64,000 bases of DNA from an uncultured Candidatus Micrarchaeota archaeon (GCA_963760615.1 CAVXDX010000003.1:104718-168717), one strand, 5' to 3'. Positions 15,418 to 61,581 are shown, counted from the stretch's first letter. The notes: generated from the sequence alone by a model not told the origin. A program made the numbers and translations.

Positions 15418-15606
15418 ATGGCATCACCGAATATGATTATTTCGCGCCCATTAATAAATATAACTCTTTGAAGAAGATTCTCATCACTTAGAAAGGAGAT
15501 AAATGCAATACCAAATTTACAATACTCGCTATCCGGAAGTAACGCCCGTAATTCCGTAAAGGAGAGAGATGTTGCAAACAATATCTGTGAAGCAGGAAGC
15601 ACTCAT

Positions 15607-15665: not shown

Positions 15666-15718
15666 AAGTGTGCAAACCACCCATTAACATTATATACCAA
15701 TCTTAGCAATAAGATTTC

Positions 15719-19451: not shown

Positions 19452-19455
19452 CTTA

Positions 19456-30036: not shown

Positions 30037-30228
30037 ATGCTTGTTTCCAAAACTCTGAAATGCAAGGTTTTCAACCCAACAAAAAGGAAGCTTGGACTTT
30101 TAAGTAGAGAATATAATAATTTCAAATTTACCACGAATAAGCGAGAAACCCACACTCTTCAGAGGTGGGATGAAAGCGAATGTATTACATTGCAGAACAA
30201 AAAAAATTTGATGAGTGATGTTGTATGA
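30037..30228 (+). pseudogene. tnpB: truncated N-terminal fragment of a TnpB (IS605 OrfB) gene
   Basis: KTLKCKVFNPTKRKLGLLSREYNNF matches the conserved TnpB N-terminus; the ORF is interrupted after about 40 aa by the left end of the intact element (hairpin at 30149-30169). Confidence 0.5.
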
Positions 30229-31282: not shown

Positions 31283-31301
31283 AAAGTATTTTATTAAGTA
31301 A
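30225..31301 (+). CDS. tnpB: TnpB (IS605 OrfB) RNA-guided endonuclease-type transposase accessory protein
   Basis: N-terminus TFKIRHNKDFSNEL, RuvC-I WLGIDRN, RuvC-II E in EDLKG, zinc finger CSRCG...CQCCGHVDHADVNASFNIA. Confidence 0.85.
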   Translation: MILTFKIRHNKDFSNELRKAKQIAECAVKTRTQSSKDVKQFGLKSIISNQILRKYSRNKRVKDVKNVNLTIPSQGITLDKKHREIRIPSLKLSLGYNFRDFEKINQIEIDKEYAFISVTVREMPQIKPDVWLGIDRNTTGHVAVMANPQTGKVLKLGKEAGHIHSKYKSMRRELQKSGKYRKVKEIRNRESRIIRDLNHKMAKKIVEVAEENHAGLKLEDLKGIRSNRKHKKGFNYNLHSWSFFQLQKFIEYKAKLHGVPITYVEPENTSKECSRCGSIGIREGKNFKCQCCGHVDHADVNASFNIALRQGIGQLHADSDACKGSTDTPKDATLMNDNDFRTPHALAVGVCQKKYFIK

Positions 31302-34017: not shown

Positions 34018-34539
34018 CTAAGAATACCTGATAACCAGCGTTCCATTGACAAATTTAACCGCTCCTGTTTTTACTTCGGTATAAGTGACATACATGTTCC
34101 CGTAATAGATGTCGCCAACTGATGCATTGGGAACGCTCCAGCCATCCTGCCCCGTGCATATGACGATGTTCCCGCTGTTTCCGCCTGCTATGTAGTTCCT
34201 CTCCCCATTCGTTATAAGAACTGGGTTGCTAAGAAGCGGCATCACAGAAGGGTTGCCAATTCTGCTTGTGCACACGAAGGAAGTTATGTTTATCAATTTC
34301 CCGGTGTTCTGCACTAGCGAAATATCCAGTATGCCGTCTCTCCTGAGAGCTAGCGGTTGGTAGCACGAGAAGTTCCCATGAAACTCGCATACTCCATAAA
34401 ACGTTTGCACTGTAGGCACAGGCGTGTAGGGAGTGTTGAGGTAAAGGTATACCACAAGCAGAATTATAAGTGCCGAGGCAAGTCCGATTTCCCTGTTGGT
34501 CGCCTGTCCCCTTTTCATGCACTCAACTGCCGTAGCCAA
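34018..34539 (-). CDS. archaeal type IV pilin-like protein
   Basis: MKRGQATNREIGLASALIILLVV class III signal peptide. Confidence 0.55.
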   Translation of the reverse strand: MATAVECMKRGQATNREIGLASALIILLVVYLYLNTPYTPVPTVQTFYGVCEFHGNFSCYQPLALRRDGILDISLVQNTGKLINITSFVCTSRIGNPSVMPLLSNPVLITNGERNYIAGGNSGNIVICTGQDGWSVPNASVGDIYYGNMYVTYTEVKTGAVKFVNGTLVIRYS

Positions 34540-35305
34540 GTGTAACTTCGAACGGTCCGCTTGTCACCCCGGAAACGCTTGCGGTGACTACTGTATATCC
34601 AGTGGTCATCAAGAAAGCATGGGCAGTTCCGTTCACCGTTGGCGAATAATCATCTATAACTCCTATGGGAACATGGAAATGCACGAGCGTTCCGTCAGGT
34701 AATGGGTTTCCAAATGAATCAGTCACAGTAGCGGTTATATTCACGAACTCAGTCCCACCCGCAGTGTAGTTTCCTTTACTGCCTACTACTATATACTTCG
34801 GGTTTGGCGCGTAGGCAGGCGCCAGGCTTATGACAATCATCCCGTTTATATTCTGGGCGTACATCTGCCCGCCGGAGAAGCTGTAATTGCTCCCCTGCAG
34901 CACATACCCATAAGGTGTCCCATCAGGCAATGTGGCAACTATGCTGGGCACAACGACAACGTTGGTGGTTATGACAGGAAATGAGTGCGAGTAGTTCACA
35001 GTCCCAAGGCTGAATTGAATGTCAACGCTTTTTGAGATGTTATTCAGTATGATTGTATAGGGTGTAACGCCATCAAGCATAACTGGGTATATAATTTTTC
35101 TTGAGTAACCTGTGCCTGATCTAGCAGCAAGATTCAGCTCAGATGCAAACTGCTCGCCAACGCTATCAGCCAAGGCTTCTTTTGAACGTTCCATCTCTGC
35201 TGAACGCTGCTGGCTGAAGTTCGCCACAAAGATTGTGAAAATCAGCATTACGAACATGTATATGACCAGCAACTCGTTAGCGCTCTGACCCTTTGAGCTG
35301 ACCAT
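34523..35305 (-). CDS. archaeal type IV pilin-like protein
   Basis: MVSSKGQSANELLVIYMFVMLIF class III signal peptide. Confidence 0.55.
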   Translation of the reverse strand: MVSSKGQSANELLVIYMFVMLIFTIFVANFSQQRSAEMERSKEALADSVGEQFASELNLAARSGTGYSRKIIYPVMLDGVTPYTIILNNISKSVDIQFSLGTVNYSHSFPVITTNVVVVPSIVATLPDGTPYGYVLQGSNYSFSGGQMYAQNINGMIVISLAPAYAPNPKYIVVGSKGNYTAGGTEFVNITATVTDSFGNPLPDGTLVHFHVPIGVIDDYSPTVNGTAHAFLMTTGYTVVTASVSGVTSGPFEVTLGYGS

Positions 35306-35313
35306 GCTACCAC

Positions 35314-35775
35314 CTAACTCCTCTCAATGTAAACGCAGTTCTGCGTCGGATCAACCTGTGTGCAGTTGTCCTCAGCATATATCTTTATGAAATATGTTCC
35401 AGGCCTGGCTATTGTCGTAAGGTCCCCCGCGATATCCGTCACAGTCCATCCAACTATCTGCGTGGTGCCGGCACTTGTTCTCAGCGTGATCACCACTTCA
35501 TGCCCTATTCCTCCAGTAGCATTCCCAACTGATATACTGCCCACATTCTGCGGCATGAACACCTGTATGCTCATCTTTGCAGGGTATCCCTGCGCCCCAA
35601 CAACGTCGGCGTAGTTGGCTATCTTTGTTGCGGTCTGCTGGGCTTGCTGTATGGCAAGCTGGTCTGCCACATTAGCGCTTTGCAGGTATGCTATGAGAAG
35701 AAGAGGGAACATTATGGTCACTACAAACGCAACAGTTATCATTATCTCTGTGCTTGCCTGGGCCTTTACCCTCAT
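35314..35775 (-). CDS. archaeal type IV pilin-like protein
   Basis: MRVKAQASTEIMITVAFVVTIMF class III signal peptide. Confidence 0.55.
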   Translation of the reverse strand: MRVKAQASTEIMITVAFVVTIMFPLLLIAYLQSANVADQLAIQQAQQTATKIANYADVVGAQGYPAKMSIQVFMPQNVGSISVGNATGGIGHEVVITLRTSAGTTQIVGWTVTDIAGDLTTIARPGTYFIKIYAEDNCTQVDPTQNCVYIERS

Positions 35776-39394: not shown

Positions 39395-40198
39395 CTAATA
39401 ACAAAATTTGCACCTTACATTATACTTTCTGCAGAGCTGCTCTGCCCTCTCCTTGAATTTGCCGTAGTAATCGCTTTTTGAGAAGAATATTTCCTTCCAA
39501 GCAGGCAGAAGCTCCGGATACGATTTCTCAAGTATCCTCCGCATGTTCTCCCACACGTCAGGCTTTAGGTTCAGCTTGTCAAACCAGAGGTAATCAGCCT
39601 TCAGCTCGGAGCCAGTTTTCACAATCTCATCAAGGCCTTTATCAGTCAAGTAGGGAAGAACAGGTCCGACAAAGATGTATATATTTATCCCGTTTTCATG
39701 CAGAAGCCTGAGGGCTTCCAGCCTATCACTTACAGGTGAGGAAAAAGGCTCAAAGTTTCTCCTCACAGAATCGTCAAGAGTTGTTATAGTGATTCCAACC
39801 TCCTCCTCATTGAATTTTTTCAGCAGGTCAATATCCCTTGTCACAAGGGAAGATTTTGTCTGGATGCACACGGGGAATTGTTTTTCAAGCAGCATCTCAA
39901 GAAGCTTTCTCGTAAGCCCATATTTCTTCTCAAGAGGCTGGTAGGCGTCTGTCAAGGATGATATGAAAACCTGCCCCCTCTTCTTTGAAGCAATTTCCTT
40001 CCTTAAAATTTCAGGAGCGTTGACTTTCACATCAATGAACTCCCCCCAAGGTTCAGTGTGCCTGCTGAACCTCCTTGTTATTGGGTTTGCGTAGCAGTAT
40101 GTGCAGCCATGCTGGCACCCAACATAAGGGTTGATGCAGTAGACAGCAAGCTTGCTAGGGTTGAGCAGGGACTTGCATTTTACTTCGTTTATTGACAT
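39395..40198 (-). CDS. radical SAM protein (SplB/DNA-photolyase-like, COG1533)
   Basis: CQHGCTYC (Cx3Cx2C) cluster near the N-terminus. Confidence 0.6.
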   Translation of the reverse strand: MSINEVKCKSLLNPSKLAVYCINPYVGCQHGCTYCYANPITRRFSRHTEPWGEFIDVKVNAPEILRKEIASKKRGQVFISSLTDAYQPLEKKYGLTRKLLEMLLEKQFPVCIQTKSSLVTRDIDLLKKFNEEEVGITITTLDDSVRRNFEPFSSPVSDRLEALRLLHENGINIYIFVGPVLPYLTDKGLDEIVKTGSELKADYLWFDKLNLKPDVWENMRRILEKSYPELLPAWKEIFFSKSDYYGKFKERAEQLCRKYNVRCKFCY

Positions 40199-40260: not shown

Positions 40261-41583
40261 ATGCCAAATAATTTATGGGTTTCGCAGCTTTTTGACGAGC
40301 AGAATTCACCTCAGGAGCTTGAGAAGAAGGGAACCCTCCAATTTGGCACCAGCAGGGAAGTCAAGCTTGATACTCGATGCGCCATATGCAAGGGCTCAAA
40401 ATTCCTGTGCGGCAAGGACAGCTGCCCCATTCTTGTAAAATTCTACGCTCAGAATAGGACAAGGCCTCTTATCGACAAGCTTACACTGGAAGGCTCCTCC
40501 CCGCCAGACCTGTTCATCGGAAGGATGGGCTATCCCTATGTGAATATAGGTCCGCTCATACCACCAATAACAGGAAATACCGAAATCATGGGGACTCCTG
40601 AGATGTGGCAGGGAAAAACCATAGAGGAAATTGTGGATTTCCGCTTCCAACTTGTGAGGGGAAAATACAGGGTGAATGTGAAAGATGTTGAGGCGGGGAA
40701 GATTGTAGAACTCACAAGGGAGCTTGCCCTCTCAAAAGCGCCCACAGAAGTGGATGCAGAATTCAGGAAAAAGCCTGCTGGAAGACTCGTGCTTGATGAT
40801 GAGGTGCAGCCTTTCGGCCCCTCAGCACCATTAAAAGATATTGATATAACATACTCAACAATAGACCACAAGATTGACAAGGCTTTCAGCGACACAGATC
40901 TGAGGGCGTCAGAGGCAGTAATCAGTCTATACGAAAATGACGTGCTAGTCTCAAGGATACAGAAGGCTTTCTCCGCGGGCTTGTTCGGAATCGAAAAGAA
41001 CCGGAAGTTCGTCCCAACGAGATGGTCCATCACTGCGGTTGACAGCATACTCTCAAAGAACCTGCTGGAGGATGTGAAAACCTTCCCGCTGATTAATGAG
41101 TTTAGAGTATACGAGCACACTGCTCTTGACAACAGGTGGATTATCCTTATGATTCCCTCCCGCTGGAGCTATGAGCTGATTGAGGCGTGGTATCCCAAGA
41201 CAATATGGAACCCGGATGGCAGGGAGATTGCAATATTCTCAGATGCTGAGGGATATGAAGGCAGGACCGAATATCCAGACATAGGCGGATGCTACTTCTC
41301 TGCGAGGCTTGCAATTTCTGAAGAGTTGAGTAAAGAGAGAAGGCAGGCTGCAGCGATAGTAATGAGGGAGGCCCATCCTGGTTATATTATGCCTGTGGGA
41401 GTGTGGAATGTCCGAGAAGCTGTGAGGAATGCAATGAAGAATCCGCACATGAACTTTGCAAGCCTCAAGGACTCCTTTGCCTACATCTTCTCAAAATTCG
41501 ACATAACCATGGACGTATGGATAAAAACCAGCAAGCTTCTGCGGGATATGATTTTCCAGAAAAGAATTAAGGATTACCTCTGA
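40261..41583 (+). CDS. Nre-family (NreA-like) DNA-repair-associated protein
   Basis: 440 aa, N-terminal Cys cluster CAICKGSKFLCGKDSCP, size and layout like archaeal Nre_N/Nre_C proteins. Confidence 0.45.
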   Translation: MPNNLWVSQLFDEQNSPQELEKKGTLQFGTSREVKLDTRCAICKGSKFLCGKDSCPILVKFYAQNRTRPLIDKLTLEGSSPPDLFIGRMGYPYVNIGPLIPPITGNTEIMGTPEMWQGKTIEEIVDFRFQLVRGKYRVNVKDVEAGKIVELTRELALSKAPTEVDAEFRKKPAGRLVLDDEVQPFGPSAPLKDIDITYSTIDHKIDKAFSDTDLRASEAVISLYENDVLVSRIQKAFSAGLFGIEKNRKFVPTRWSITAVDSILSKNLLEDVKTFPLINEFRVYEHTALDNRWIILMIPSRWSYELIEAWYPKTIWNPDGREIAIFSDAEGYEGRTEYPDIGGCYFSARLAISEELSKERRQAAAIVMREAHPGYIMPVGVWNVREAVRNAMKNPHMNFASLKDSFAYIFSKFDITMDVWIKTSKLLRDMIFQKRIKDYL

Positions 41584-48747: not shown

Positions 48748-51700
48748 ATGATGAAAAAATTGGTTTTTTTAACGGTCTTCCTACTTCTCATGACTCCTTC
48801 ATCTTATGCTTCTTTAACCTACCCAACCTCACCAAAAGGCACACCAAGAATTTCAAAGCAGTATATGATGCCTGCCCCAACAATCTACACGGTAAATGGC
48901 CTTTACCAAATAAACATGACAGGCCTGAGCGACTTTGACCGTCCCGGTAAACCCATTCTTCCTTTTAAGACCGTCAGCCTGCTTCTGCCTCTTGACCAAT
49001 CATTTAACAGCGTCGAGGTGATTCCTAGCCAAAGAACAGAGATAGGAAACTATAAAATCAACTATGGCAGAGTAGAACTGCCTTTGAACTGGGGTTCCGA
49101 TGCTTATGTAACGAAAAAATTCTCGAATGTAACAACAGTAATAAATCAAACTGTCTATTCTCAAAACAGTGAGTATCCCGGAGTGCTTTACTCTGTAGGA
49201 TCAATCTCAATCTTCAGAGGCTATAAGATAATTATTGTAAATCTTTATCCTGTTCAGTATATACCCAGCACAGGAGAAGTCTACTATTTCAAATCAATTA
49301 CTGTCAATGTTTATACAGATAATGTTACGTCAATCCCATCTACCTTCAGAGGCCTTGACACAGACAAGGCAGATGTTTCATCTATGGTAAGTAATCCTGA
49401 GGATATTGTTACATACAATTCTTCATATAAGTATGTTCCATCTAAAAACGAGTTTGGAACCGCCTCTCTAACTCCGGCCCAATGGGACTACGTTATCATA
49501 ACCTCAAGCAGTCTTGCAAGTGCTTTCCAACCACTACTTGATTACAAGAACTCTCAGGGTATCAAGACAACCATAGAGACTGTTGAAAACATTTACTCCA
49601 AATATTCTGGCAAGGATCAGCAAGAGCAGATTAGGAATTTCATCAAGGATGCTTACACAAACTGGGGCATCAAGTATGTTCTTTTAGGCGGTGACGGTTC
49701 TGGAGTAAATGTCGGAGGAGAGAGCGGGGTCAACATAATTCCAACAAGATATTTGTATCCTAGATTTAGTCAGGCAGACGATGCAATCCCATCTGACATT
49801 TACTATAGCGATCTAGAAGGCTCATTCGATAGCAATGGCAACGGCTATTACGGCGAGCCAGGAGATGGATGCGATATCAATCCATCCACTTGCGAGGTTG
49901 ATTTGTATGCTGACGTCTATGTCGGCAGAGCAACAGTTGCTAATGTTCAGGATGTTAATAATTTTGTTTCAAAGACTATTGCTTATGATTCTGAAAGCAT
50001 AAGCGACCCTCACAAGGGCGAGGCATTGATGGTTGGTGAGTATCTTGGCTTTGGAGGCGTTGCAAACTATGCAACTAATAGCAAGGAAGAGGTGAGGCTA
50101 GGCTCGAACCAGAACGGCTATACAACAGCAGGTTTCTATCCGGGCTACTCTGTAGATCTGATGTATGACTCCCCTGCTCACACCTGGTCAAAGGATGACT
50201 TGATTTCAAAGATCAATAACAATTCCGCCAACATCATCAATCATCTCGGTCATGGCAGCACTTTATGGGTTATGAAGCTCTGCAACGCTCCTTACTCACA
50301 ATCAGGTCCTTACTGCGGAGACAGCGGTGTCACGGATCTCAGCAGTCTTAGCAACACGAAATATTTCTTTGCCTACAGCCAAGCATGCTATTCAGGAGCA
50401 TTTGACAACTGGAATTATCAAGGTATGTACACAATGTCCGATTCAATAGCAGAGCATCTTGTCAAGGATGCTCACGGCGCTTTCGCTGTGGTAATGAATA
50501 GCAGATATGGGTGGGGTCAATTATTTTCTACTGACGGTGCGTCAGAGAGATATGACAGGCAGTTCTTCGATGCAATCTTTGGGCAGAACATCACAGAGTT
50601 GGGTAAGGCAAATACATACTCGAAGGAAAAGAACATCGGCTATCTATCTTCATCCGATCCAGCTGAAGCAGGCGTGATGAGATACGTCTACTACGAGACA
50701 AACCTTTTAGGAGATCCGACTACCCAGCTGCAGACAGACTATACAAAGCCTCAAGCTCTTATCACATCTCCGCAAATGGATGACATTTCTTACGGCTCAA
50801 TAAATGTCAGTGGGTATGCAAAAGCGGGTAAAGCAGCAGGTTCGACATTTAGGAACTATAAAATCTTTTACGGCACTGGAATGTTTCCTACTGTTTGGAA
50901 TTCTACTGGCGTGACTTTGGTTAACTATGGGTTGAGACCTGTGGACAATAATAGTCTGGGAACGATTGATACAACTCTTTTTTATGATGCGGACACTGAT
51001 TTTACAGGATGGGATTATTACGCCTATTATTGGGGAAGTGGTGCCGGTGCTTATTCAATCAAGCTGGTAGTTTACGATAACCTCGGAGCATCAACTGAAA
51101 GTATAACTCGTGGTGTTGGAGTTCATAATATAGTGCTGAACCAGCCAATGCCAAGAGATGTCTTAGGACCGATAACTGAAATAAAAGGGACTGTTTCAAG
51201 CGGGTATGCCAATCCTCTTACATCTTATAGTATTGTATATCAGCCACAAAATACTACGGGATGGTCTGCGAGTGGAATAACACTAACTAACAGTGGAACA
51301 CAGCCTGTTTATAACGGTGTCTTGGGAGTTTTGAACGCCGGTGGATTAAATACTGGATGGTATACCTTTAGATTAATAGCTGTTTATACGTATAATACTA
51401 AAATGCAGACCATAGAAAATGTTTATATTGATACAACCTTAAGACCTGGTTGGCCGCAAAGAGTTTATTTTCAAGGTATAGATAATCCTTACTTTTGGAC
51501 TTCCCATATTGTTTCAAGTGGAATTAATATCAGCAATCTTAAAAACTTGAGTATTAATTTAAGCTCATATGGTAAAATTGCCCCAGGAGGTAATATAGTA
51601 AGTAGTGTAAATTACCCTCTTTATAATATATCTAGTTTATCATCTGGATTTGTCAGTCCTTATCAGCCAGGAAACTTTGAGCCAGTTGTTAGCGATATCA

Positions 51701-54270
51701 ACGGTGACGGCAAGGATGAAATAATAGTTTTTCAACCAGGAGAGAATACTGCTAGTTTTGGACAAGAAGTCCCAGGAATAATATCTGTTTTCAGTCAAGA
51801 TGGAACACTTTTATATAATTGGTCTATACCAAGTCCTACTATTCCGCCTGGTGGTCTTGGTACCCCTTTAGGTGGAATGGGTTCAGTGTGGCTTCCACCA
51901 TTTGCAGTTGCGCCTCCTTCTGTTGCAAATATAGACGGTGATAATGATGAAGAAATTGTAATCCCAGTTGCTCCTGCCCCTACAGAAGTTGCTACTTTAA
52001 ATGTTTATGAATATAACGGCACATTATTAAAAACTCTAGATTCTTCAAGAGATAATTATGATTTTAGGAATGAGCCTCTAATAGCAAATTTGTTCAATAA
52101 TGGAACTATGTATGTTGTAAAAAAAGTTGATTATTGCGAAATAGAGCAGCCTCAACCGAACGTACATGAATGGGATGCTTGCTTGAAAGTTTATGACCCT
52201 CAAGGGAATATGCTAAACGGTTGGCCTGTTTCAACCAAGCCTTCCGCCGGAGCGCTAATAATGTTTGGAAAAGTTAATCCAAATCAAGTTGTTGGTCATT
52301 TTGAAAACAATAAGAACTCGGACATTGTCGACTTTTCTACTGTTCATTGGAATCCTCGGGGTAATCGTGATGGCCTTAAACTCACTGTTTATACGCCAAA
52401 CGGAACCATTCTCCCAGGATTTCCTGTTGTATGGGATGACGGTCTTATCCACACAGCCTCAGACCCTGTTGTAGGAGACATTAACAGGGATGGAAAAGAT
52501 GAAATAATTTTTGTTCATAATGGCGGTACTCTAACTGCCGTAGATAGTAATGGCAATACACTGTGGACTCAGAATTTTCAAGTGCAAGGAGCAGGAGGTA
52601 ATACTTATCAGTATTCAAAATCTCCTGCTTTGATTGATATTAATCATGACGGTTATCTAGAGATTGTATTAGTAACAGGTAGTCACGAATACATCGTAGA
52701 TCATACAGGAAATATTATTAAAGATTTTATAATAGCATATGGTGTTAGTAATATGGCAACTGCCCAATTTGATGATAATGCTGCTCCTATAACCGAAAAG
52801 TCACCTGTAGTCGTTGATTTGAATAATGATGGCGTTTCTGACATTTTGACAACATCACAGAATTGGGAAGCTTATAATGGTGGAGACTTTGTCGGATTTG
52901 ACGACATTCAAGAGATTCATGCCTTCAATCCTTTGGACATTAATAACAGCTCATGTTTTGACAGTAATAATGTATACCTGTGCGAAAAGAAATACTTTCC
53001 AGGTTTTCCAAAAATTATGGAATCTTCAATTTTCTTTTATGCATCTCCAGTGATTATTAATAAGGATGGAAAGGTTGAAATAGTAGCAACTTCAAGTATG
53101 GATGACCTTTTTAAAGGAAGAGCAAGCATCTATGTTTGGGATACTAACATAACTTATGGACCAGAAGCAGCATCGTGGCCTATGTTCCAGCACGATGAGA
53201 TGCATACTGGCAGGTTTGTATTCCCACTAACTCTAGTCCAATCCGTCAATCCCGCATCCGGAACTGCAGTTGCACCGGTCACACCAACATTCATCTGCGG
53301 TTATTATGACACAAATAATGCTCCAATACTTGGAGCCAGTGTTAATGTCACCATTGACTCAAATATTCACACTGCAACCTACAACTCAACTACTGGTGAT
53401 TACCGCTATTCAGGCCTGACGCTCACTACGGCAACCCATAAATGGTACTGCAGTGCGTCAGCATCAGGATACAACACCAAGATAGGTGCTAACCAGACGT
53501 ATCTTTTTGTAACCCCCATGCCGGTAGCAGCCCTCAAAGGAGGCCCAAACGGACAGCTATATGTCCCCAACATAACAGGCATCAATTACCTGAAAGTGGA
53601 TTTGTGGTGCAACATGAGCAACACAGACTGCCAGTTTATTGGCGGCAGGCAATACTGCGGTTGCACACGCATGCAGTGCGACCAGACAGGAGCCACTGCG
53701 GCAAACCGACCATACCCAACAATAACAAACTGGCCGGACGGCAGGATTAACCTGCAGGACACAATGTTTGAGAACCTCAATTTCGGTCAGAACGAAGGCA
53801 TGCCTGCCTGGAACTACACGGCAGACTGTATTCCAGACAGGAGGACTAACCTGCAGGATACTGCTGGTGCAAGCTACAGATTTGGAGCAATAGGCGGAAC
53901 CTATTCCAACAACACTGCAAATATAAAAGTCCTTTTCAACAATGACCCAAGCTTCAAGATGCCCGATGTATACGGATACATACAGATTCCTTCAGGTGCT
54001 GTGAACTTCACTGTATATAACGGAACAAAGCCAGTGATGGCGCTGGTGACATTCTACAACAGCTCAATCTTATACCAACTCGCACCTGCAACCAAACCAA
54101 GCACTCAAGTCCAGACAACAGCTCTTATGGCACCAACCGTTGAGATGCCGGTAGGAAACACATGGACGATGGCAGTGGTTCTCATAGCAATAATAGGCTT
54201 GGTGATTGGCTACTTCATCCTAAAGGAAATTCTGTACATAAGCGTCCCAAGAAAAAAGAAGAGAAAGTAG
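48748..54270 (+). CDS. giant secreted surface protein: peptidase C25 (gingipain-like) domain + FG-GAP/beta-propeller-like repeats + C-terminal TM anchor
   Basis: Signal peptide MMKKLVFLTVFLLLMTPSSYA; C25-like segments YVIITSSSLASAFQPLLDYKNSQGIKTT, YVLLGGDGS, INHLGHGS (His) and YSQACYSGAF (Cys); repeated DINGDGKDEII/DINRDGKDEII/DLNNDGVSDI; C-terminal TM + KKKRK. Confidence 0.7.
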   Translation: MMKKLVFLTVFLLLMTPSSYASLTYPTSPKGTPRISKQYMMPAPTIYTVNGLYQINMTGLSDFDRPGKPILPFKTVSLLLPLDQSFNSVEVIPSQRTEIGNYKINYGRVELPLNWGSDAYVTKKFSNVTTVINQTVYSQNSEYPGVLYSVGSISIFRGYKIIIVNLYPVQYIPSTGEVYYFKSITVNVYTDNVTSIPSTFRGLDTDKADVSSMVSNPEDIVTYNSSYKYVPSKNEFGTASLTPAQWDYVIITSSSLASAFQPLLDYKNSQGIKTTIETVENIYSKYSGKDQQEQIRNFIKDAYTNWGIKYVLLGGDGSGVNVGGESGVNIIPTRYLYPRFSQADDAIPSDIYYSDLEGSFDSNGNGYYGEPGDGCDINPSTCEVDLYADVYVGRATVANVQDVNNFVSKTIAYDSESISDPHKGEALMVGEYLGFGGVANYATNSKEEVRLGSNQNGYTTAGFYPGYSVDLMYDSPAHTWSKDDLISKINNNSANIINHLGHGSTLWVMKLCNAPYSQSGPYCGDSGVTDLSSLSNTKYFFAYSQACYSGAFDNWNYQGMYTMSDSIAEHLVKDAHGAFAVVMNSRYGWGQLFSTDGASERYDRQFFDAIFGQNITELGKANTYSKEKNIGYLSSSDPAEAGVMRYVYYETNLLGDPTTQLQTDYTKPQALITSPQMDDISYGSINVSGYAKAGKAAGSTFRNYKIFYGTGMFPTVWNSTGVTLVNYGLRPVDNNSLGTIDTTLFYDADTDFTGWDYYAYYWGSGAGAYSIKLVVYDNLGASTESITRGVGVHNIVLNQPMPRDVLGPITEIKGTVSSGYANPLTSYSIVYQPQNTTGWSASGITLTNSGTQPVYNGVLGVLNAGGLNTGWYTFRLIAVYTYNTKMQTIENVYIDTTLRPGWPQRVYFQGIDNPYFWTSHIVSSGINISNLKNLSINLSSYGKIAPGGNIVSSVNYPLYNISSLSSGFVSPYQPGNFEPVVSDINGDGKDEIIVFQPGENTASFGQEVPGIISVFSQDGTLLYNWSIPSPTIPPGGLGTPLGGMGSVWLPPFAVAPPSVANIDGDNDEEIVIPVAPAPTEVATLNVYEYNGTLLKTLDSSRDNYDFRNEPLIANLFNNGTMYVVKKVDYCEIEQPQPNVHEWDACLKVYDPQGNMLNGWPVSTKPSAGALIMFGKVNPNQVVGHFENNKNSDIVDFSTVHWNPRGNRDGLKLTVYTPNGTILPGFPVVWDDGLIHTASDPVVGDINRDGKDEIIFVHNGGTLTAVDSNGNTLWTQNFQVQGAGGNTYQYSKSPALIDINHDGYLEIVLVTGSHEYIVDHTGNIIKDFIIAYGVSNMATAQFDDNAAPITEKSPVVVDLNNDGVSDILTTSQNWEAYNGGDFVGFDDIQEIHAFNPLDINNSSCFDSNNVYLCEKKYFPGFPKIMESSIFFYASPVIINKDGKVEIVATSSMDDLFKGRASIYVWDTNITYGPEAASWPMFQHDEMHTGRFVFPLTLVQSVNPASGTAVAPVTPTFICGYYDTNNAPILGASVNVTIDSNIHTATYNSTTGDYRYSGLTLTTATHKWYCSASASGYNTKIGANQTYLFVTPMPVAALKGGPNGQLYVPNITGINYLKVDLWCNMSNTDCQFIGGRQYCGCTRMQCDQTGATAANRPYPTITNWPDGRINLQDTMFENLNFGQNEGMPAWNYTADCIPDRRTNLQDTAGASYRFGAIGGTYSNNTANIKVLFNNDPSFKMPDVYGYIQIPSGAVNFTVYNGTKPVMALVTFYNSSILYQLAPATKPSTQVQTTALMAPTVEMPVGNTWTMAVVLIAIIGLVIGYFILKEILYISVPRKKKRK

Positions 54271-54891: not shown

Positions 54892-55977
54892 ATGCATGTT
54901 GAGAGGAAACTGCCGGAAAGAACGCACTTCGGAGATAAACCCGTATCCTGCACTCAGTATCTCACGAAAGACAAGCAGATTACAACGTTCTGGGAGTACG
55001 CTGATCGACTCGGAGTTAAGAGCACTATCCTTATCCATCTTGTAATTACTCCCAACAAGGAACTAATAGAAGCAAGAATAACCGACAGAACATTGGGCTT
55101 TACTAATAACACTATCATATACGACAAATCGGCTGAACCAGTACAACGTTCTTATCCTCCTGGGCGTCAGAGAATAGCAGAAGATTACCAGGCAAAGTTA
55201 AAACTTTTCCTCGAGAGCGTGGATATAACTATCACACCCGCGCTTCCCTCTGCTGAAAAAACCTTCAAAAATCTTGCAGCAAGTGGAGAAGGGGTAGCCG
55301 CTAAGAAGGAGCCAGAATTTTCAAAGGTTATGAAAATTCAAAGAAGAGGTAGTGCGATGCATGTAGTCATCCCGACTGAAATAGTAAGACAATGGGGACT
55401 GCAGGATGGTCAAATAGCATACTGGAAGATTCTAGGTGACCGTTTCACCCTAAAAACAGTAAAAGGTGTGCACGAGAATGTCGTACAAGTGTATGGACCG
55501 GGGTACGGGAGATTAGGTCTCAGCATCCCAAGAAAAATTCAAAAGGATTCTGGTTTCGAGGCAGACATGACTTTCAAGCTGGAAGAGGTCTCAATTGGAG
55601 ATGACAAATTCATCAAGCTGATACCAACGAAGGGAGAGTGGGATGCTAGAATTTACGGTAAGCCAGGAGACTTAAGGATGGGGTTCTCCAAATCAGTTTC
55701 GGGGACTCTTATACAACCGTATATGCTGCTCGATTGGAAGATTAAAGAAAAGGAGAGCTTTCTGGAAATACTTGGCACCCATCCCTATAATATAACCATC
55801 TGGGAGGTGGAGAAAGAAGGTTCTCTGTGTGCAGCTATCCCAAAGAGACTGATAAAAGATATGGAACGCATGAAGCGCATGAACTTTGAGAACTGCGAGA
55901 ATGTAGTGTGGACGATGGAGGAAGGCGAAGCATTTCTAAGACCCATCTTGCCAGAGGACATAACTCGTAAAAGTTAA
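54892..55977 (+). CDS. protein with three tandem AbrB/MazE/SpoVT-like swapped-hairpin domains
   Basis: Repeats VMKIQRRGSAMHVVIPTEIVRQWGLQDGQIAYWKI, GRLGLSIPRKIQKDSGFEADMTFKLEEV, SLCAAIPKRLIKDMERMKRMNFENCENVVW. Confidence 0.5.
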   Translation: MHVERKLPERTHFGDKPVSCTQYLTKDKQITTFWEYADRLGVKSTILIHLVITPNKELIEARITDRTLGFTNNTIIYDKSAEPVQRSYPPGRQRIAEDYQAKLKLFLESVDITITPALPSAEKTFKNLAASGEGVAAKKEPEFSKVMKIQRRGSAMHVVIPTEIVRQWGLQDGQIAYWKILGDRFTLKTVKGVHENVVQVYGPGYGRLGLSIPRKIQKDSGFEADMTFKLEEVSIGDDKFIKLIPTKGEWDARIYGKPGDLRMGFSKSVSGTLIQPYMLLDWKIKEKESFLEILGTHPYNITIWEVEKEGSLCAAIPKRLIKDMERMKRMNFENCENVVWTMEEGEAFLRPILPEDITRKS

Positions 55978-56007: not shown

Positions 56008-56439
56008 CTATATCCTCTTCCTGAAAACCAGCCACCCCATCTTCGTCTTAATCATGGCATACATTCCATTCAGCTTCTTCCCCCCAAGCTCGAACTCAAT
56101 CTTGTTGTCTTCCCACAGTTTCACTTTCGCTTTTCCCTTATCATAAATTTTTACGGTTCCAGCACCGTACATACCCTTTGGAATTACCCCTTCAAAATTT
56201 GCGTATTCAAGAGGGTGGTCCTCAGTTGGCACCGCAAGCCTTTTTTCATCGCCTTCTGGAAACCCCTTCGGCACAGCCCAGCTTTTCAGCACACCCTCCT
56301 TCTCAAGCCTGAAATCGTGGTGCCAGTGGGAAGCCTGGTGCTCCTGGATAACGAAAATCCCACCTGCGCTTTTTAGCTCTCCCCTTGGCTCAGGGCTTTT
56401 TGAGAGATCCCTCTTCTTCTTGTATTCCTCAAGCATCAA
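56008..56439 (-). CDS. stand-alone LigD-type 3'-phosphoesterase (PE) domain protein
   Basis: IFVIQEHQASHWHHDFRLE ... GVLKSWAVPKG motifs of the LigD PE domain. Confidence 0.75.
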   Translation of the reverse strand: MMLEEYKKKRDLSKSPEPRGELKSAGGIFVIQEHQASHWHHDFRLEKEGVLKSWAVPKGFPEGDEKRLAVPTEDHPLEYANFEGVIPKGMYGAGTVKIYDKGKAKVKLWEDNKIEFELGGKKLNGMYAMIKTKMGWLVFRKRI

Positions 56440-56822
56440 AGAAGCCTCTTCTCACCAGTTATTTTCTGTATATCTGTGATATCCTGAGTGACCTCTATGC
56501 ACCCCTTATACTCCCCTTTTCTGCTCCTCACTGCGAAATATCTTATGTAGATTTTCTTGCCGTTCAAATCAATCCAGAACTCTGCAGAATCCCTCTTCCC
56601 ACTCCTGAATTCAAAGAGTATTCTGTTCACTGCAGCCAAGCTTTTTTCTGGGTGGCACTTCTGCACGCTCCTCCCTATAACCGAAGCAGGCCTCTGGAAA
56701 ATCTCCCTGCGGCCTTCCTTGTTGAAATACCTTACGGTTTCATCTGCATCTATAAAAGAGAATTCAAAAGGCAGCGCATCCAGTATGTCATCCAGATACT
56801 CCTTCGGCACGTCCTCAATCAT
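56436..56822 (-). CDS. PAS-domain protein
   Basis: 128 aa, PAS-like fold (LDALPFEFSFIDADETVRYFN...). Confidence 0.5.
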   Translation of the reverse strand: MIEDVPKEYLDDILDALPFEFSFIDADETVRYFNKEGRREIFQRPASVIGRSVQKCHPEKSLAAVNRILFEFRSGKRDSAEFWIDLNGKKIYIRYFAVRSRKGEYKGCIEVTQDITDIQKITGEKRLL

Positions 56823-57430
56823 TTTTCCACCTCAAGCTCAACTTCAACAACTTTGCCAGCGGGCTTCTCCTCCTTAAAAACCTGGCTCTGGAACTTGTAG
56901 ATTTTAACCTTGGGGCTCAGCCACACGTCAACGGGCACGCCAGCCTTGTAGCATGTCTGCGAGAGAAACTCCTCTTCATCCCATCCCTGCTCAACAGGCA
57001 CTATGGGGAGAAGCAGCCCAGAGTAATACCCATACTCCACAATCAACCCGTCCTTCCCCACCCTTACCCTCTTGGGGTATTCTTTCGGGTCACTGACTTT
57101 TATAACTTCTGGAACCGTAAGCACACTTATCTCAATGGTGCATTTGTCCAGCTCTCTTCTGCTCATCTCCGGAAACCTGGGGTCACATGTTGCAGAGCTT
57201 ATCGCGCAGTCCACAACAGACTGTGCAAGCTCCTTGACTGGATAGGGATACCCTATGCAGCCCCTCAGCCCCTTCTCTGGGCATGTCTCAATGGTTACGA
57301 AAACTCCCCTCTTTTCAAGAAGCGATGCAGGAGGGTTGTCAGGTTCTATGGTAATTCTTTTTTCTAGGTATACCTCAATGGCCTTCCTAGCAAGCCTTAT
57401 CAGATATTCTCCCTCATCCAAAGAGAGCAT
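56819..57430 (-). CDS. AMMECR1-domain protein
   Basis: GLRGCIGYPYP and CDPRFP motifs of AMMECR1. Confidence 0.8.
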   Translation of the reverse strand: MLSLDEGEYLIRLARKAIEVYLEKRITIEPDNPPASLLEKRGVFVTIETCPEKGLRGCIGYPYPVKELAQSVVDCAISSATCDPRFPEMSRRELDKCTIEISVLTVPEVIKVSDPKEYPKRVRVGKDGLIVEYGYYSGLLLPIVPVEQGWDEEEFLSQTCYKAGVPVDVWLSPKVKIYKFQSQVFKEEKPAGKVVEVELEVEK

Positions 57431-57438
57431 ACAATCAC

Positions 57439-58302
57439 CTAACCCCAGGGGGATATACCCACCAGCCTCATCATTATCAGGTATTTCACAAGCGGGAAGA
57501 GCAGAAGGTAAAATGGGGCCACCAGGGGTATTGCTATTCTGAAGCCGGCGAGTATGGAGCCCTGCGAGAGCAGCAGGACCAACAAGCCTGGCACTATGCC
57601 AGTGAGGAATATGAGAAATATGGAATATTTCACTGATTCATTCGTGTATACTGATATGGAGCTCCTTCTTGAAGTCTCAATTTCTCTTATGAAGCTCTCA
57701 AGGACATTCACTATGTTGACACCACTCCCCATCGCATAGCTCAGTGTTGCGACAAACCTCTGGAAAGTAACCGAGGGGGTCCTCATGGAAATCTCCACGA
57801 ATGCATCGCTTATTTCCTCCCCTTCCTTGATTCTCACCAGGCTCTGCCTGAACAGCTCGGAGACGACACCATAATTCTCTCTTGCGATGGACTCTATTGC
57901 ATCATGCAGCGGTATGCCCGAACGCAGTTCTGAAAGCAGATGTCTCAGCGAGTCAAGCAGGTTCAGGTCGACATCCCTCTTCCTGCTGTTCACTATGAAA
58001 TCAAAATAGCTGACTGCCATAAATGTTGAAACAAAAAGCATTATAAGAGAGAGAAAGAGAGCGAGGTAAATGGTGAATTGAAAGTAGGCTGCGATAAAAG
58101 AAAAATAAATCGCTGAGAGCACGAATGAAGTTACTCCCACACCAACTACAAATGAGGAATAACCCCCGGGCGTTATATCTATGCCAGACTGCAGTATCCT
58201 TAGCTTGGTTGCCCTTGAAGTGGGTATCACCCTCTGCGGGTTTATACCGAGTTTTGAGAAAATCTTTGACCAGAACGCTGAGAAATCCACTACAAAATCC
58301 AT
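57439..58302 (-). CDS. TadC/FlaJ-like (T2SS F-domain) membrane platform protein
   Basis: 287 aa, T2SSF-like cytoplasmic domain (LRHLLSELRSGIPLHDAIESIA) flanked by TM helices. Confidence 0.65.
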   Translation of the reverse strand: MDFVVDFSAFWSKIFSKLGINPQRVIPTSRATKLRILQSGIDITPGGYSSFVVGVGVTSFVLSAIYFSFIAAYFQFTIYLALFLSLIMLFVSTFMAVSYFDFIVNSRKRDVDLNLLDSLRHLLSELRSGIPLHDAIESIARENYGVVSELFRQSLVRIKEGEEISDAFVEISMRTPSVTFQRFVATLSYAMGSGVNIVNVLESFIREIETSRRSSISVYTNESVKYSIFLIFLTGIVPGLLVLLLSQGSILAGFRIAIPLVAPFYLLLFPLVKYLIMMRLVGISPWG

Positions 58303-58306
58303 AGGC

Positions 58307-58543
58307 TCACTTCAGGATACTCTTTATCCTTGGCATGAATTCCTCCCTCTTGTTCCTTGGGGTGTTGTAGTATGCGTGAATCACCTTTCCGACATCAAAG
58401 AAATTCGTTATGCCGTTATTCGCAAGGTAGTTCAACACCTGCGCCCTCCTTTTGAATTCATCGCGGAGTTCCCCCTCTGTAAGATTGAAGCTCTGGGCGT
58501 ACTTATTCAGCGTTTTTGAGGGGTATCGGCCGAACACTCTCAA
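58307..58543 (-). CDS. small hypothetical protein in the secretion-ATPase operon
   Basis: 78-aa ORF filling the 200-nt gap between the ATPase and tadC; overlaps the ATPase 3' end by 41 nt. Confidence 0.3.
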   Translation of the reverse strand: MRVFGRYPSKTLNKYAQSFNLTEGELRDEFKRRAQVLNYLANNGITNFFDVGKVIHAYYNTPRNKREEFMPRIKSILK

Positions 58544-60527
58544 GCTCGCTCTTCTTCTCGTTGAACTCGTAAAGCTTGTTGAGGAAGCCCACTTCCTCCC
58601 CCTCCCTCCAAACCTGATCCCTCATTTTTGTCGGAATGGTGTCCTTTCCAAGCATGCCTTCAATCTCATCTGGAATTTCACCTCTGGAGCGCCAGTTCAC
58701 CTCTGAGCACTGTATCACCCTTCTTTTCTTCTCGACATCTGTTGAGAGTGTTATTATTATGTCAAGCATCGATAGCATGTCGCTTGGAACCTTCATTGGC
58801 GGTCCGTGTATCCTTTTCACAACTGCAGTTCCAACCTCCTTTGAATGCAGTGTAGTCATGAAGGATATGCCCCAGTTGGCTCCTGAGAACAGCTCTCTGG
58901 CTTCACTCCCCCGGAGCTCCCCCAGCACAATTCTGTCCGGCCTCATCCTCAGGGAATTGGTTATCTGGTCCATGGAAGTTCTGAGCCTTGCAACCTCCTC
59001 GCCCTTCCTCATTGCCTCATCCTTCCTCTCCTGGTAAACCCCGATAAGCGGAATCCAGTTTATGAACTTATCATAGAATCTGAGCTCGTTTATCTCCTCC
59101 TCAACCGATATGACCCTCTCGCCTGCAGGGATGAAGACAAGCAGAGAGGAAAGAAGGGACGTCTTTCCTGTTGCAGGTGCGCCCGTGATTATCATCTGGG
59201 ATTTCTTGAGCTCTATGGCCATCCAGAGGAACGCGCCAAGCTCCGCATCAACGGTTCCGGCATTCATTATCTTCGTATACGTCCAGGGGTCGCTCCCGAA
59301 GAGCCTTATGCTGGCGGTTGCGCCTGTGAGGGAAGCTGGAGCAATCTGGGCATGAAGCCTTGAACCGTCAGGAAGCTGGGCATCAACCACAGGGTGTATC
59401 ATGTCAAGCGATTTGCCAAGAGGCCTCAGAATTGCATTCATAACTTTCTTGAATGACCTGTCGCTCGTGAACCTCAGATTTGTTATGCACCTTCCATGCT
59501 TCCTGTGGTAGACAAGAATTTCCCTCAGCGGGTGGTCAATTTCTATCTCCTCAAGATTTTCCCTGTCCCTCATCCAGAAGTACTCTATGGCGCCAAAGCC
59601 TATAGTGTCAATTGCCACTATCTCCGCTATGGACTCCTTCTTCTCCGGGTCCAGGGTCGGCTCAAGCCTGTTTAGTATATCCCTTGCTATGAGCTTGACC
59701 TTGTTGATAGCCTTAGACCTCATCTCCAGATTGAAATACTCCGGAGGGGTGAGGAACGCCGACAGGTATTCATCGGCAACTTTCATTATTGTGAAATGCT
59801 TCACATACTCAGCAAGCTTCCAGTCATCTGAGAACAGCTTTGGGAAGCTTATGCAGTACGTCCTCCCCAAATCCTCCACATCGAATATCTTAACCCTCCC
59901 ATACTCGTCAACCAGTCTAGCATCCTTGCCCGGCGGCGGGAACTCAAGAACACCAAACGAGAAAGGAGCGGAGAACCTTTTATCTATGCTCTCCGGTGAA
60001 AGTGGCTCCCTGTATCTGATGGTGGGTATGTCCTTGCCCTCTCCTATGAAATGCGGCTCAAATCCTTTCTCATAGAACTCCTCAGATTCATGTTCTTTCT
60101 TGGCTTCTGAGATATCCTCCTCAACTTCATAGACTTCAAGAGCGCCGTGGGGGCAGAATGTAACACATATTGGGTTTGACAGCTTTAGAGAGGAGCATAG
60201 GTCGCATTTGACGGATACCTTCATGCCCTTCTTATTCTTCTTCAGCTTTATCCCGCTGGTCTTGCATTCCGAAACGCATGCGCCGCAGCCGTCGCATTTC
60301 TCAGGGATTACCTGTATTATGCCATTCTTGTCTATCCTGAGAGCGTTGTTCATGCACGCCTTGACGCAGACCGCATACTTCGGGTTGCATTGCGTGCAAT
60401 ACTGCAACTCCCCTCCCGCTATGGACAGGACTCCTTTTGGGCATACCCTTGTGCAGTAGTTGCATTGCGGTGCCTTGCACTTCTCCTCAATCCACCTAAG
60501 CTTCTTCATAAAACGACCGGGAAACAC
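58503..60527 (-). CDS. FlaI/VirB11/TadA-family secretion ATPase with N-terminal tandem 4Fe-4S ferredoxin-like domains
   Basis: Four Cys clusters (CKAPQCNYCTRVCP, CTQCNPKYAVCVKAC, CDGCGACVSEC, CDLCSS...CVTFCP); Walker A GAPATGKTS, Asp box DRIVLGELRGSEA, His box TLHS. Confidence 0.75.
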   Translation of the reverse strand: MFPGRFMKKLRWIEEKCKAPQCNYCTRVCPKGVLSIAGGELQYCTQCNPKYAVCVKACMNNALRIDKNGIIQVIPEKCDGCGACVSECKTSGIKLKKNKKGMKVSVKCDLCSSLKLSNPICVTFCPHGALEVYEVEEDISEAKKEHESEEFYEKGFEPHFIGEGKDIPTIRYREPLSPESIDKRFSAPFSFGVLEFPPPGKDARLVDEYGRVKIFDVEDLGRTYCISFPKLFSDDWKLAEYVKHFTIMKVADEYLSAFLTPPEYFNLEMRSKAINKVKLIARDILNRLEPTLDPEKKESIAEIVAIDTIGFGAIEYFWMRDRENLEEIEIDHPLREILVYHRKHGRCITNLRFTSDRSFKKVMNAILRPLGKSLDMIHPVVDAQLPDGSRLHAQIAPASLTGATASIRLFGSDPWTYTKIMNAGTVDAELGAFLWMAIELKKSQMIITGAPATGKTSLLSSLLVFIPAGERVISVEEEINELRFYDKFINWIPLIGVYQERKDEAMRKGEEVARLRTSMDQITNSLRMRPDRIVLGELRGSEARELFSGANWGISFMTTLHSKEVGTAVVKRIHGPPMKVPSDMLSMLDIIITLSTDVEKKRRVIQCSEVNWRSRGEIPDEIEGMLGKDTIPTKMRDQVWREGEEVGFLNKLYEFNEKKSELESVRPIPLKNAE

Positions 60528-60719
60528 TCCTCGATATACTTTAGCTGTATAGATTTAAAATGTTGCAGGTTTAACTCAGGAAAGCTTAATATATCTCAGC
60601 GCATCAATACGCACAGGTGATTTTTGTGGAGGAACACCCTGAATGCGAATCTTGCCCTTTCTGCTGCTACGAGAGACCAGAGAAAGAGGAGAAGAAGCCA
60701 AAAAAGAAGAAGGCGGCTC

Positions 60720-61193
60720 CTAAACGACGCTGAGCTGAACTGTCTTATTTATATCAAGAGAGATGGGCAGGTTGAGTGTTGCACTTACATACCACCTCAC
60801 CTGAGAGGGCGCAGCCCCTAAGCCCTCCGCTATTCCAACTATGTCTGCTGCCAGTCCTTCCAGCTTTGGTGGCTCTGGCATTTTAGGCACTGTTATCTCA
60901 AACTGGTACTCCCCACTGGTATACTCCTTCTCCCCTCCGAGAGTAAGCTTGAACTCATAAACTATGTCTTTACGACTCGTTGGTCTTTCCACAGATTTAT
61001 GGCTTGCAGAATCAAATGTTTGACTTTTCGTTCTCACACTCCTCTCGCCCCAAAACCTCACCCCGAGTTCCCTGGCCTTCTTGGGAGAATTAAGCTGAAG
61101 TTTTACAGTCCCCTTTATTTTGTCACCTGGCGAGTAGTTTACCTTATCCAGGGTTACATCCATTCTGCCCTCACCAATACCAAAAACCACCAA
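60720..61193 (-). CDS. Spo0M/arrestin-N-like protein
   Basis: VTLDKVNYSPGDKIKGTVKLQL arrestin-like N-terminal strand pattern. Confidence 0.4.
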   Translation of the reverse strand: MVVFGIGEGRMDVTLDKVNYSPGDKIKGTVKLQLNSPKKARELGVRFWGERSVRTKSQTFDSASHKSVERPTSRKDIVYEFKLTLGGEKEYTSGEYQFEITVPKMPEPPKLEGLAADIVGIAEGLGAAPSQVRWYVSATLNLPISLDINKTVQLSVV

Positions 61194-61260: not shown

Positions 61261-61581
61261 ATGAAAGCGAAGGTACTTCTGCTGTTGTTAGTGCTAGGCA
61301 TTGTCTCAGCACAGGTGGCTAGCACAGATGTTAGAACCACGCTATGTCCTCTTGTAACGCTCGTGAGGCAGATTGGGGTTTTCATTGCCATAGTGATGCT
61401 CTCCTATGCCGGCATAAGCTTCATGACATCCGGCAGCGATCCAATGAGGCACAAGGAAGCAGAGAAGAGGCTCGAATATGTCATAATAGGCATATTGATT
61501 CTCATAATGGCTTTCTACATAGTTGCAAGAATGTTCGCCGGGGTGAATGTGCTCAGCGGCGGGGACTGCCCTTGGGTCTAG
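61261..61581 (+). CDS. small signal-peptide + two-TM membrane protein, VirB2/TrbC-pilin-like topology
   Basis: Signal peptide MKAKVLLLLLVLGIVSAQVA, two TM helices separated by a charged loop (TSGSDPMRHKEAEKRLEY). Confidence 0.35.
   Translation: MKAKVLLLLLVLGIVSAQVASTDVRTTLCPLVTLVRQIGVFIAIVMLSYAGISFMTSGSDPMRHKEAEKRLEYVIIGILILIMAFYIVARMFAGVNVLSGGDCPWV

Follow-up and report, generated by a model that had tools for sequence, protein, structure and literature searches.

A polyferredoxin-fused type IV filament ATPase and its platform gene, packed tightly with AMMECR1, PAS_10 and 3'-phosphoesterase genes in a Micrarchaeota genome

A 64,000-nucleotide stretch of DNA from an uncultured Candidatus Micrarchaeota archaeon (CAVXDX010000003.1:104718-168717 of GCA_963760615.1), hereafter called the window, carries on its minus strand at 56008-60509 a cluster of five genes, which encode, in this order, a ferredoxin-fused ATPase, a platform protein with a T2SSF domain, an AMMECR1 family protein, a PAS_10 protein and a LigD-type 3'-phosphoesterase (PE). 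The original prediction, which was made from the sequence alone, regarded the cluster as a six-gene operon and offered a DNA uptake/export or damage-coupled secretion machine as one hypothesis for its function. The comparisons described here suggest, with good probability, that the cluster is composed of a pilus core and three unrelated rider genes that were packed together by genome compaction, and that it does not represent a new DNA-transport machine. All six open reading frames (ORFs) of the prediction were found on the minus strand at the coordinates it gave, every one of the domain identities it assigned agreed with the Pfam or NCBIfam profile searches, and the combination of genes is indeed unusual. 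The number of genes needs correction to five because the "small ORF" between the ATPase and platform genes is the frameshifted C terminus of the ATPase.

The distribution of the genes among related loci is central to this conclusion. The best genomic matches of the ATPase all come from Micrarchaeota, i.e., Sv174 (92-94% identity), Ca. Fermentimicrarchaeum limneticum Sv326 (84%), and the Lake Pavin and DRTY-6 metagenome-assembled genomes (83%). When the loci whose ATPases are at least 83% identical to that of the window are taken as a clade (L002, L003, L004, L005, L007, L011 and L166/L167), the order of ATPase, T2SSF, AMMECR1, PAS and PE genes is retained in seven of seven, with the same junction geometry. 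Most of these loci also keep purM, the genes for a VirB2-like pilin and an arrestin-like protein, and hyp124, and the conservation within the clade is largely synteny of the whole region among close relatives. Outside the clade, at least nine loci whose ATPases are 33-62% identical (L006, L009, L010, L012, L013, L082/L162, L164, L175 and L176) all have the ATPase and T2SSF platform genes followed by a second platform gene for a protein of 310-323 amino acids, with a variation at L176, where a gene for a 259-amino acid protein without a Pfam match precedes a 310-amino acid T2SSF gene. Pilins with class III signals are encoded near the pair at L006, L009, L010, L012 and L164. By tblastn, no homologue of AMMECR1, PAS or PE was detected within about 10 kb on either side of the pair at L006, L010, L012, L082, L162 and L164 or on the downstream side at L009 and L013, and the gene calls of L175 and L176 contain none either. 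Homologues of the riders that reside elsewhere also live apart: neither PAS, AMMECR1 nor a secretion ATPase is encoded near the PE homologues with 64-65% identity (L168/L169 and L170), and neither PE, AMMECR1 nor a secretion ATPase near the PAS_10 homologues of L171 and L172-L174. Co-localization across divergent lineages beyond synteny, which would be expected of a functionally coupled operon, was not observed. The co-localization in related genomes on which the original prediction had staked its case therefore exists in a narrow syntenic clade only, and it is absent from at least nine distant loci that have retained the ATPase gene and its platform partner.

The close spacing of the genes was correctly described in the prediction. 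The gaps between the C terminus of the ATPase and T2SSF and between T2SSF and AMMECR1 are 4 and 8 nucleotides, respectively, and AMMECR1 and PAS overlap by 4 nucleotides and PAS and PE by 1 nucleotide, when the latter is counted from the ATG at 56436. Such spacing is uninformative by itself because short gaps are the norm across the window: a crude gene call gave 74 genes covering about 91% of the DNA, and the gap was 10 nucleotides or shorter in 23 of 48 same-strand neighbor pairs (48%), with a median of 11.5 nucleotides. In a DPANN genome with this coding density, a near-zero intergenic distance is no evidence of shared function. At L166/L167, moreover, the same-strand array from ATPase to PE runs on through genes for DUF362, two hypothetical proteins, a MazE-like protein, an HD hydrolase, PGM, a sugar NTP-transferase and DUF460, and the sole break in the L166 array is a 50-amino acid Sec61-beta call on the opposite strand; a long co-directional string of unrelated genes is thus nothing unusual in this lineage. 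The corresponding array of the window is interrupted by two genes, one (48748-54270, plus strand) for an 1840-amino acid surface protein that has a membrane anchor at its C terminus and combines a C25 propeptide and peptidase domain with FG-GAP repeats, and the other (54892-55977) for a 361-amino acid protein.

Based on these comparisons, the origin and the working of the cluster can be imagined as follows. The hexameric ATPase of the FlaI/GspE/CpaF type and one half of a split platform would constitute the core of a type IV filament assembly machine, in which, by analogy, ATP hydrolysis passed on via the platform would pull class-III-signal pilins out of the membrane and polymerize them. In the Fermentimicrarchaeum lineage, a rearrangement might have occurred right after the first platform gene, so that riders replaced the second platform and pilin genes, and compaction would then have deleted the spacers. 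The direction of this rearrangement is what we infer from the distant loci. The riders would retain separate roles, probably RNA-related for AMMECR1, probably redox- or O2-related for PAS_10, and DNA 3'-end healing for PE.

The ATPase gene of the window is split by a 1-nucleotide insertion around position 58531, which yields ORFs for 674 and 78 amino acids. When the window was compared by blastn with L001, a sequence from another assembly, they were 99.97% identical over 7.6 kb, with one gap around 58531, one mismatch at 58529 and no other difference. L001 encodes a single ATPase of 733 amino acids, and seven of seven close relatives have one continuous ORF for 732-733 amino acids. The 78-amino acid ORF (58307-58543, minus strand), which is put out of frame by the insertion, weakly matches PilB3_C, the C-terminal domain of archaeal pilus ATPases, and the last 67 or so residues of the ATPase form a helical domain modeled confidently by AlphaFold (residues 665-732, pLDDT about 90). 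The "small ORF" is thus the C-terminal part, about 67 residues, of the ATPase and not a separate gene. Either the assembly is in error at the extra base, or the strain itself carries a frameshift. Programmed frameshifting was also considered and was ruled out because the ATPase is in frame in every relative.

The main part of the ATPase gene occupies 58503-60509 on the minus strand, and its translation likely starts from the ATG at 60509 rather than the GTG at 60527. The protein begins with a polyferredoxin of approximately residues 1-128, and FlaI/GspE-like N- and C-terminal ATPase domains come after it, beyond a disordered linker. Searches with the product of 58503-60527 gave a T2SSE match of 77 bits, well above the cut-off of 25 bits, together with matches to Fer4_7, Fer4_6, Fer4_9 and Fer4_10, and the partial NCBIfam matches were likewise of two kinds, i.e., FlaI/TadA/VirB11 and DmsB/NrfC/HybA; UpsE/UpsF-type models were matched weakly. 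A Walker A motif, GAPATGKTS, and the sequence DRIVLGELRG were recognized. The closest entries found by sequence in the Protein Data Bank (PDB) were the archaeal GspE structure 2OAP (afGspE, 2.6e-48), CpaF (3e-29) and FlaI (3e-27), and a Foldseek search with the AlphaFold2 model ranked archaeal GspE, CpaF/TadA and FlaI in the same order. The two elements of a type IV filament core, a T2SSE ATPase with Walker A and B motifs and an adjoining polytopic T2SSF platform, are therefore both present.

The N-terminal domain is the most distinctive part of the enzyme. Sixteen cysteine residues, arranged in four CxxC-type groups within the first 128 or so residues, are invariant in the alignment of the ATPases, and in the profile, PDB and Foldseek searches the region matches four-cluster iron-sulfur (Fe-S) subunits, namely FdnH, NrfC/PsrB and the Fe-S subunits of WOR5/AOR, the PDB matches by sequence covering residues 36-143. 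The fusion is kept in Micrarchaeota loci with ATPase identities of 33-88%, and the ferredoxin domain is missing from several shorter ATPase matches, including one labeled Ca. Burarchaeum australiense. No description of a ferredoxin-fused archaeal pilus ATPase was found in the open-access literature, including two surveys of archaeal pili, although this is not proof of novelty. Most likely, the Fe-S domain would make filament assembly sensitive to the redox or Fe-S status of the cell, or would dock a partner protein. The presence of such a 16-cysteine ATPase across Micrarchaeota suggests that these host-dependent organisms, which live by contact with another cell, place pilus assembly under the control of redox or Fe-S status.

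The platform protein of 287 amino acids, encoded at 57439-58302 on the minus strand, is TadC/FlaJ-like and has a single T2SSF domain (Pfam, 59 bits), which makes it one half of a split platform of the TadB/TadC type. Its gene directly follows that of the ATPase at every related locus. The second platform protein of the distant loci is a membrane protein that is considered to be a paralogue of the first because it shows a weak T2SSF match and because a hidden Markov model (HMM) built from it matches the T2SSF protein of the window with an E value of 1.7e-10. Neither in the 64-kb window nor in the clade loci did the same HMM detect anything besides the known T2SSF gene. In agreement with this, when the second platform, pilin, PriL-like, VirB4-like and polytopic 314-amino acid proteins of the distant loci were used as tblastn queries against the window, only the T2SSF and VirB2-like genes were matched. 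The lack of a local second platform gene in the Fermentimicrarchaeum clade raises the question of how the split-platform system is completed there.

Pilins with class III signals are also missing from inside the five-gene block, and no prepilin peptidase (Peptidase_A24) was found among the approximately 60 window genes that were scanned. As the original prediction had pointed out, pilin-like genes exist elsewhere in the window, and N termini resembling class III signals were seen in all three regions it named, at 34018-35775 (minus strand), 24240-25610 (plus strand) and 15719-18482 (plus strand), 20-40 kb away from the block. Some of these genes encode extra features, i.e., a VWA domain (15719-17161), an Ig-like domain (34523-35305) and a very cysteine-rich sequence (24240-25610), and the trio at 34-36 kb runs into ThiD-ThiN and CBS genes with gaps of 28 nucleotides or less.

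The three riders are all well-defined members of known families. The AMMECR1 gene (56819-57430, minus strand; Pfam, 184 bits) encodes a protein of the archaeal TIGR00296/arCOG01336 type, which matches TIGR00296 (223 bits) and PRK00801 over its full length and also TIGR04335 (183 bits). AMMECR1 is widely conserved in archaea and its function is probably RNA-related (PMC6393860, PMC4075521). The AmmeMemoRadiSam arrangement was not seen: Memo and radical-SAM genes are not adjacent to AMMECR1, whose neighbors are T2SSF and PAS_10, and the only radical-SAM gene seen in the window (39395-40198) is 17 kb away.

The PAS_10 gene (56436-56822, minus strand; Pfam PAS_10, 96 bits) encodes a stand-alone protein of 128 amino acids, which is 63-69% identical to members of a very large family of 127-129-amino acid proteins, one of which is labeled Desulfobacterales. 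Homologues with 65-66% identity occur in two contexts (L171; L172-L174), either a cluster of ferritin, cytochrome b5, desulfoferrodoxin, rubredoxin and rubrerythrin genes or a position between the genes of NifU and a flavin-reductase-rubredoxin. Because such homologues sit in oxidative-stress clusters and not in loci for pili or repair, a role of PAS_10 related to O2 or redox is suggested, and horizontal spread of the gene is possible.

The PE gene (56008-56436, minus strand; Pfam LigD_N, 118 bits) encodes a stand-alone enzyme of 142 amino acids, counted from the ATG at 56436, with a TIGR02777 score of 163 bits, which exceeds the cut-off of 144. It belongs to a very large family of stand-alone PEs and aligns end to end with the structures 3P43 (2.6e-40) and 3P4H (1e-37) across the H-x-D-x-R and EDHPL-Y motifs. 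We take these structures to be those of Methanosarcina barkeri MbaPE and Ca. Korarchaeum CkoPE; the search output names no organism. The domain is thus present with its catalytic His, Asp, Arg and Tyr motifs aligned. Neither Ku nor DNA ligase, the partners expected in nonhomologous end joining, was found among the scanned genes of the window, nor was a polymerase partner of PE. An archaeal Nre gene with Nre_N and Nre_C domains (40261-41583, plus strand) lies 15 kb from the PE gene.

Upstream of the ATPase gene, in the divergent direction, is the gene for a VirB2/TrbC-like pilin of type IV secretion systems (T4SSs) (61261-61581, plus strand). It had been noticed at 61.3 kb in the original prediction as a possible partner, and its identity was borne out by matches to Pfam T4SS_pilin (38 bits) and TrbC (32 bits). 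This is the only neighbor of the ATPase-platform pair that is adjacent also outside the clade, i.e., at L006, where the homologue is 58-59% identical. There, a minus-strand cluster at 751-9758 resembling a T4SS or Ced encodes the VirB2-like pilin, a 517-amino acid secreted protein, a 314-amino acid polytopic protein that is VirB6-like, an 890-amino acid VirB3-VirB4 fusion and a 1076-amino acid P-loop protein. This cluster and the pilus operon of the ferredoxin-fused ATPase, which occupies 10001-19537 on the plus strand and includes a gene for a 535-amino acid PriL-like protein, are arranged back to back. This arrangement hints at linked cell contact and DNA transfer. When the L006 proteins were used as tblastn queries, the VirB3-VirB4 fusion and the 314-amino acid polytopic protein had no match in the 64-kb window, so that the VirB4/CedB ATPase and the VirB6/CedA-like channel of a Ced, Ted or conjugative T4SS were not found there beside the VirB2-like pilin. 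Between the pilin gene and the ATPase promoter lies a gene for a 157-amino acid Arrestin_N/Spo0M-like protein (60720-61193, minus strand; Pfam Arrestin_N, 36 bits), which is confined to the clade, was not detected in L005 and L006, and evolves fast, with 56-59% identity compared with 80-90% for its neighbors.

The original prediction also implied that the genes are transcribed together, and the sequences agree with this. Promoters were sought by aligning the upstream regions of eight genomes, a sigma-70 scan being unsuited to an archaeal organism. A TATA-box-like sequence, ATTTTAAA, at 60554-60561 on the minus strand, about 45 nucleotides upstream of the ATG of the ATPase gene, is invariant in the window and its seven relatives while the surrounding intergenic DNA diverges, and it is probably the TATA box of a promoter for the cluster. 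No conserved TATA-like motif was found upstream of AMMECR1 or elsewhere inside the block in the eight-genome alignment. A TATAT about 29 nucleotides upstream of the ATG of AMMECR1 was rejected as an internal promoter, being absent from the conserved sequence of the relatives. In the 8-nucleotide gap before AMMECR1 there is a Shine-Dalgarno-like GGTGAT (57434-57439, minus strand), which overlaps the stop codon of T2SSF and stands 4 nucleotides upstream of the start in the window; the GAGGTGAT Shine-Dalgarno motif before AMMECR1 is kept in six of the eight clade members. Moreover, the start codon of AMMECR1 is ACG in L003 (13078), L004 (13080) and L011 (13080), including the complete genome of Ca. 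F. limneticum, and these relatives have no canonical in-frame start upstream but a strong Shine-Dalgarno motif 4-5 nucleotides before the ACG. A leaderless transcript of AMMECR1 alone is hard to reconcile with such a start. Because of the single conserved TATA-like box, the Shine-Dalgarno motif, the ACG starts, the overlaps between genes and the unbroken internal junctions, the five genes are likely co-transcribed from the box upstream of the ATPase gene, as far as can be judged from aligned sequences. Co-transcription in this genome does not, however, imply shared function.

Some observations weigh against the idea that the riders are unrelated to the pilus core. Within the clade, insertions and deletions have occurred at several junctions flanking the block, i.e., between purB and purM, through the presence or absence of a GNAT gene, between the arrestin-like and ATPase genes in L003, and everywhere after PE, and none has occurred at the four internal junctions, which is compatible with selection that keeps the five genes on one transcript. 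A shared theme is also conceivable because an Fe-S ATPase, a PAS_10 protein with oxidative-stress neighbors elsewhere and an enzyme for healing 3'-ends stand together. One possibility built on these points is a co-regulated module for redox or oxidative stress, in which one promoter would serve the Fe-S pilus ATPase, the PAS_10 sensor and the 3'-end healer, enabling an anaerobic symbiont to alter its filaments and repair its DNA when exposed to oxidants. The ferritin, desulfoferrodoxin, rubredoxin, rubrerythrin and NifU/flavin-reductase-rubredoxin genes around the PAS_10 homologues, the 16 invariant Fe-S cysteines, the ability of PE enzymes to heal 3'-phosphate and 3'-ribonucleotide ends (PMC3082917), the single conserved TATA-like box and the unbroken block in the clade would all suit such a module. 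We nevertheless think it unlikely, given that the linkage is confined to one narrow clade, that AMMECR1 does not share the theme, and that long co-directional arrays of unrelated genes are common in these genomes. In an extended version of the idea, which seems highly improbable to us, the Fermentimicrarchaeum lineage would possess an Ups/Ced-like stress regulon that co-induces the gated ATPase and its platform, a conduit made of the VirB2-like pilin, PAS_10 and PE, so that oxidative or DNA damage leads to cell contact and DNA exchange or repair in a host-dependent archaeon. In a milder form of this reading, the ferredoxin-fused ATPases conserved across Micrarchaeota would be a type of filament motor under redox control that has not been described before.

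The opposite possibility is that there is no operon at all and that the riders are transcribed from internal promoters in the upstream coding sequence, which would deprive their adjacency of regulatory meaning. Internal promoters are reported to be widespread in archaeal operons and coding sequences (PMC2710873), and the TATAT before AMMECR1 in the window could be taken for one of them, but its lack of conservation in relatives, the ill fit of a leaderless transcript with the Shine-Dalgarno motif and the ACG starts of three relatives, and the overlaps of AMMECR1 with PAS and of PAS with PE make this explanation very unlikely. The least probable explanation, in our opinion, is that the ATPase, platform, PAS, AMMECR1 and PE proteins compose one machine that takes up or exports DNA, or that couples secretion to DNA damage, in which PE would process the ends of DNA passing through the filament system and the VirB2-like pilin might be used. 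The overlapping or 4-8-nucleotide junctions, kept in eight clade genomes, are what one would expect of such a machine, and so is the VirB2-like pilin gene upstream, whose L006 homologue belongs to a VirB2/VirB6-like/VirB3-VirB4 cluster beside a pilus operon with a PriL-like gene; the damage-induced Ups pili and Ced DNA import of Sulfolobales (PMC11868833) provide a conceptual precedent. The hypothesis is weakened on the comparative side: PE, PAS and AMMECR1 never accompany the ATPase-platform pair at the distant loci, not even at L006 with its T4SS-like cluster, and the PE and PAS_10 homologues elsewhere keep away from secretion genes. Besides, the window has no VirB4/CedB-like gene, neither Ku nor ligase is among the approximately 60 genes scanned, and the tight spacing does not exceed the genomic background. 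A new DNA-processing secretion machine would matter greatly if it were true, yet such an interpretation of the cluster finds no support in the comparisons. A mobile-element origin of the block was considered as well and was set aside in view of the uniform GC content and the housekeeping neighbors.

The approximately 60 scanned genes of the window are those of an ordinary chromosome, including Cdc6, Sua5, Kae1/Bud32, an aminoacyl-tRNA synthetase, NAD synthase, PurH, PurM, ThiD-ThiN, L7Ae, Nre, PGM and others. A TnpB/Cas12f1-like gene with a TNB domain (30225-31301, plus strand) points to an IS200/IS605-type element, despite the compactness of the genome. What makes the cluster of lasting interest is the fusion of a 16-cysteine polyferredoxin with a type IV filament ATPase, together with the conserved VirB2-like pilin gene in its neighborhood.

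Comparison with known systems places the ATPase-platform pair among the type IV filament systems with two-gene, split platforms, which have been described for DPANN archaea and methanogens (preprint 10.64898/2026.04.22.720090). A FlaI/GspE/CpaF-type ATPase gene followed by a gene for a single-domain T2SSF platform protein is common to the window, the archaeal split-platform filaments ("system 1"/Epd-like, subsystem 4A) and the bacterial Tad system (CpaF/TadA-TadB-TadC), and the distant Micrarchaeota loci show the full split-platform pattern of ATPase, platform 1 and platform 2, with pilins near several of them. The ATPase of the window differs from those of the split-platform and Tad systems in having the N-terminal 16-cysteine polyferredoxin, and the lineage of the window differs from the split-platform systems in that AMMECR1, PAS and PE genes stand in place of an adjoining second platform gene and pilins. 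A precedent for an Fe-S protein in an archaeal type IV pilus locus is given by the Aap pilus of Sulfolobales, whose locus has the Fe-S cluster accessory protein AapX. AapX, which we compare by its description only, belongs to another arCOG and is a protein on its own, in contrast with the Fe-S module of the window, a four-cluster ferredoxin resembling DmsB, NrfC and the WOR5 beta subunit that is fused to the ATPase itself. The riders likewise have known counterparts elsewhere. The conserved neighbors reported for AMMECR1 in archaea are NFACT and a Mut7-C PIN/Zn-ribbon RNase (PMC4075521, PMC6393860), and, unlike those loci of arCOG01336, the cluster has neither an adjoining NFACT gene nor a PIN/Zn-ribbon gene. 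The stand-alone archaeal enzymes CkoPE and MbaPE catalyze manganese-dependent healing of 3'-phosphate and 3'-ribonucleotide ends (PMC3082917), and the PE of the window, which has the same size and a single domain, shows nothing distinctive in itself. With the damage-induced Ups pili and the Ced DNA import system of Sulfolobales (PMC11868833), the region shares the proximity of type IV pilus genes to a gene for a VirB2-like pilin. The likeness is a conceptual one. The window has no CedA or CedB (VirB4) gene, and neither Ups nor Ced includes PE, PAS or AMMECR1.

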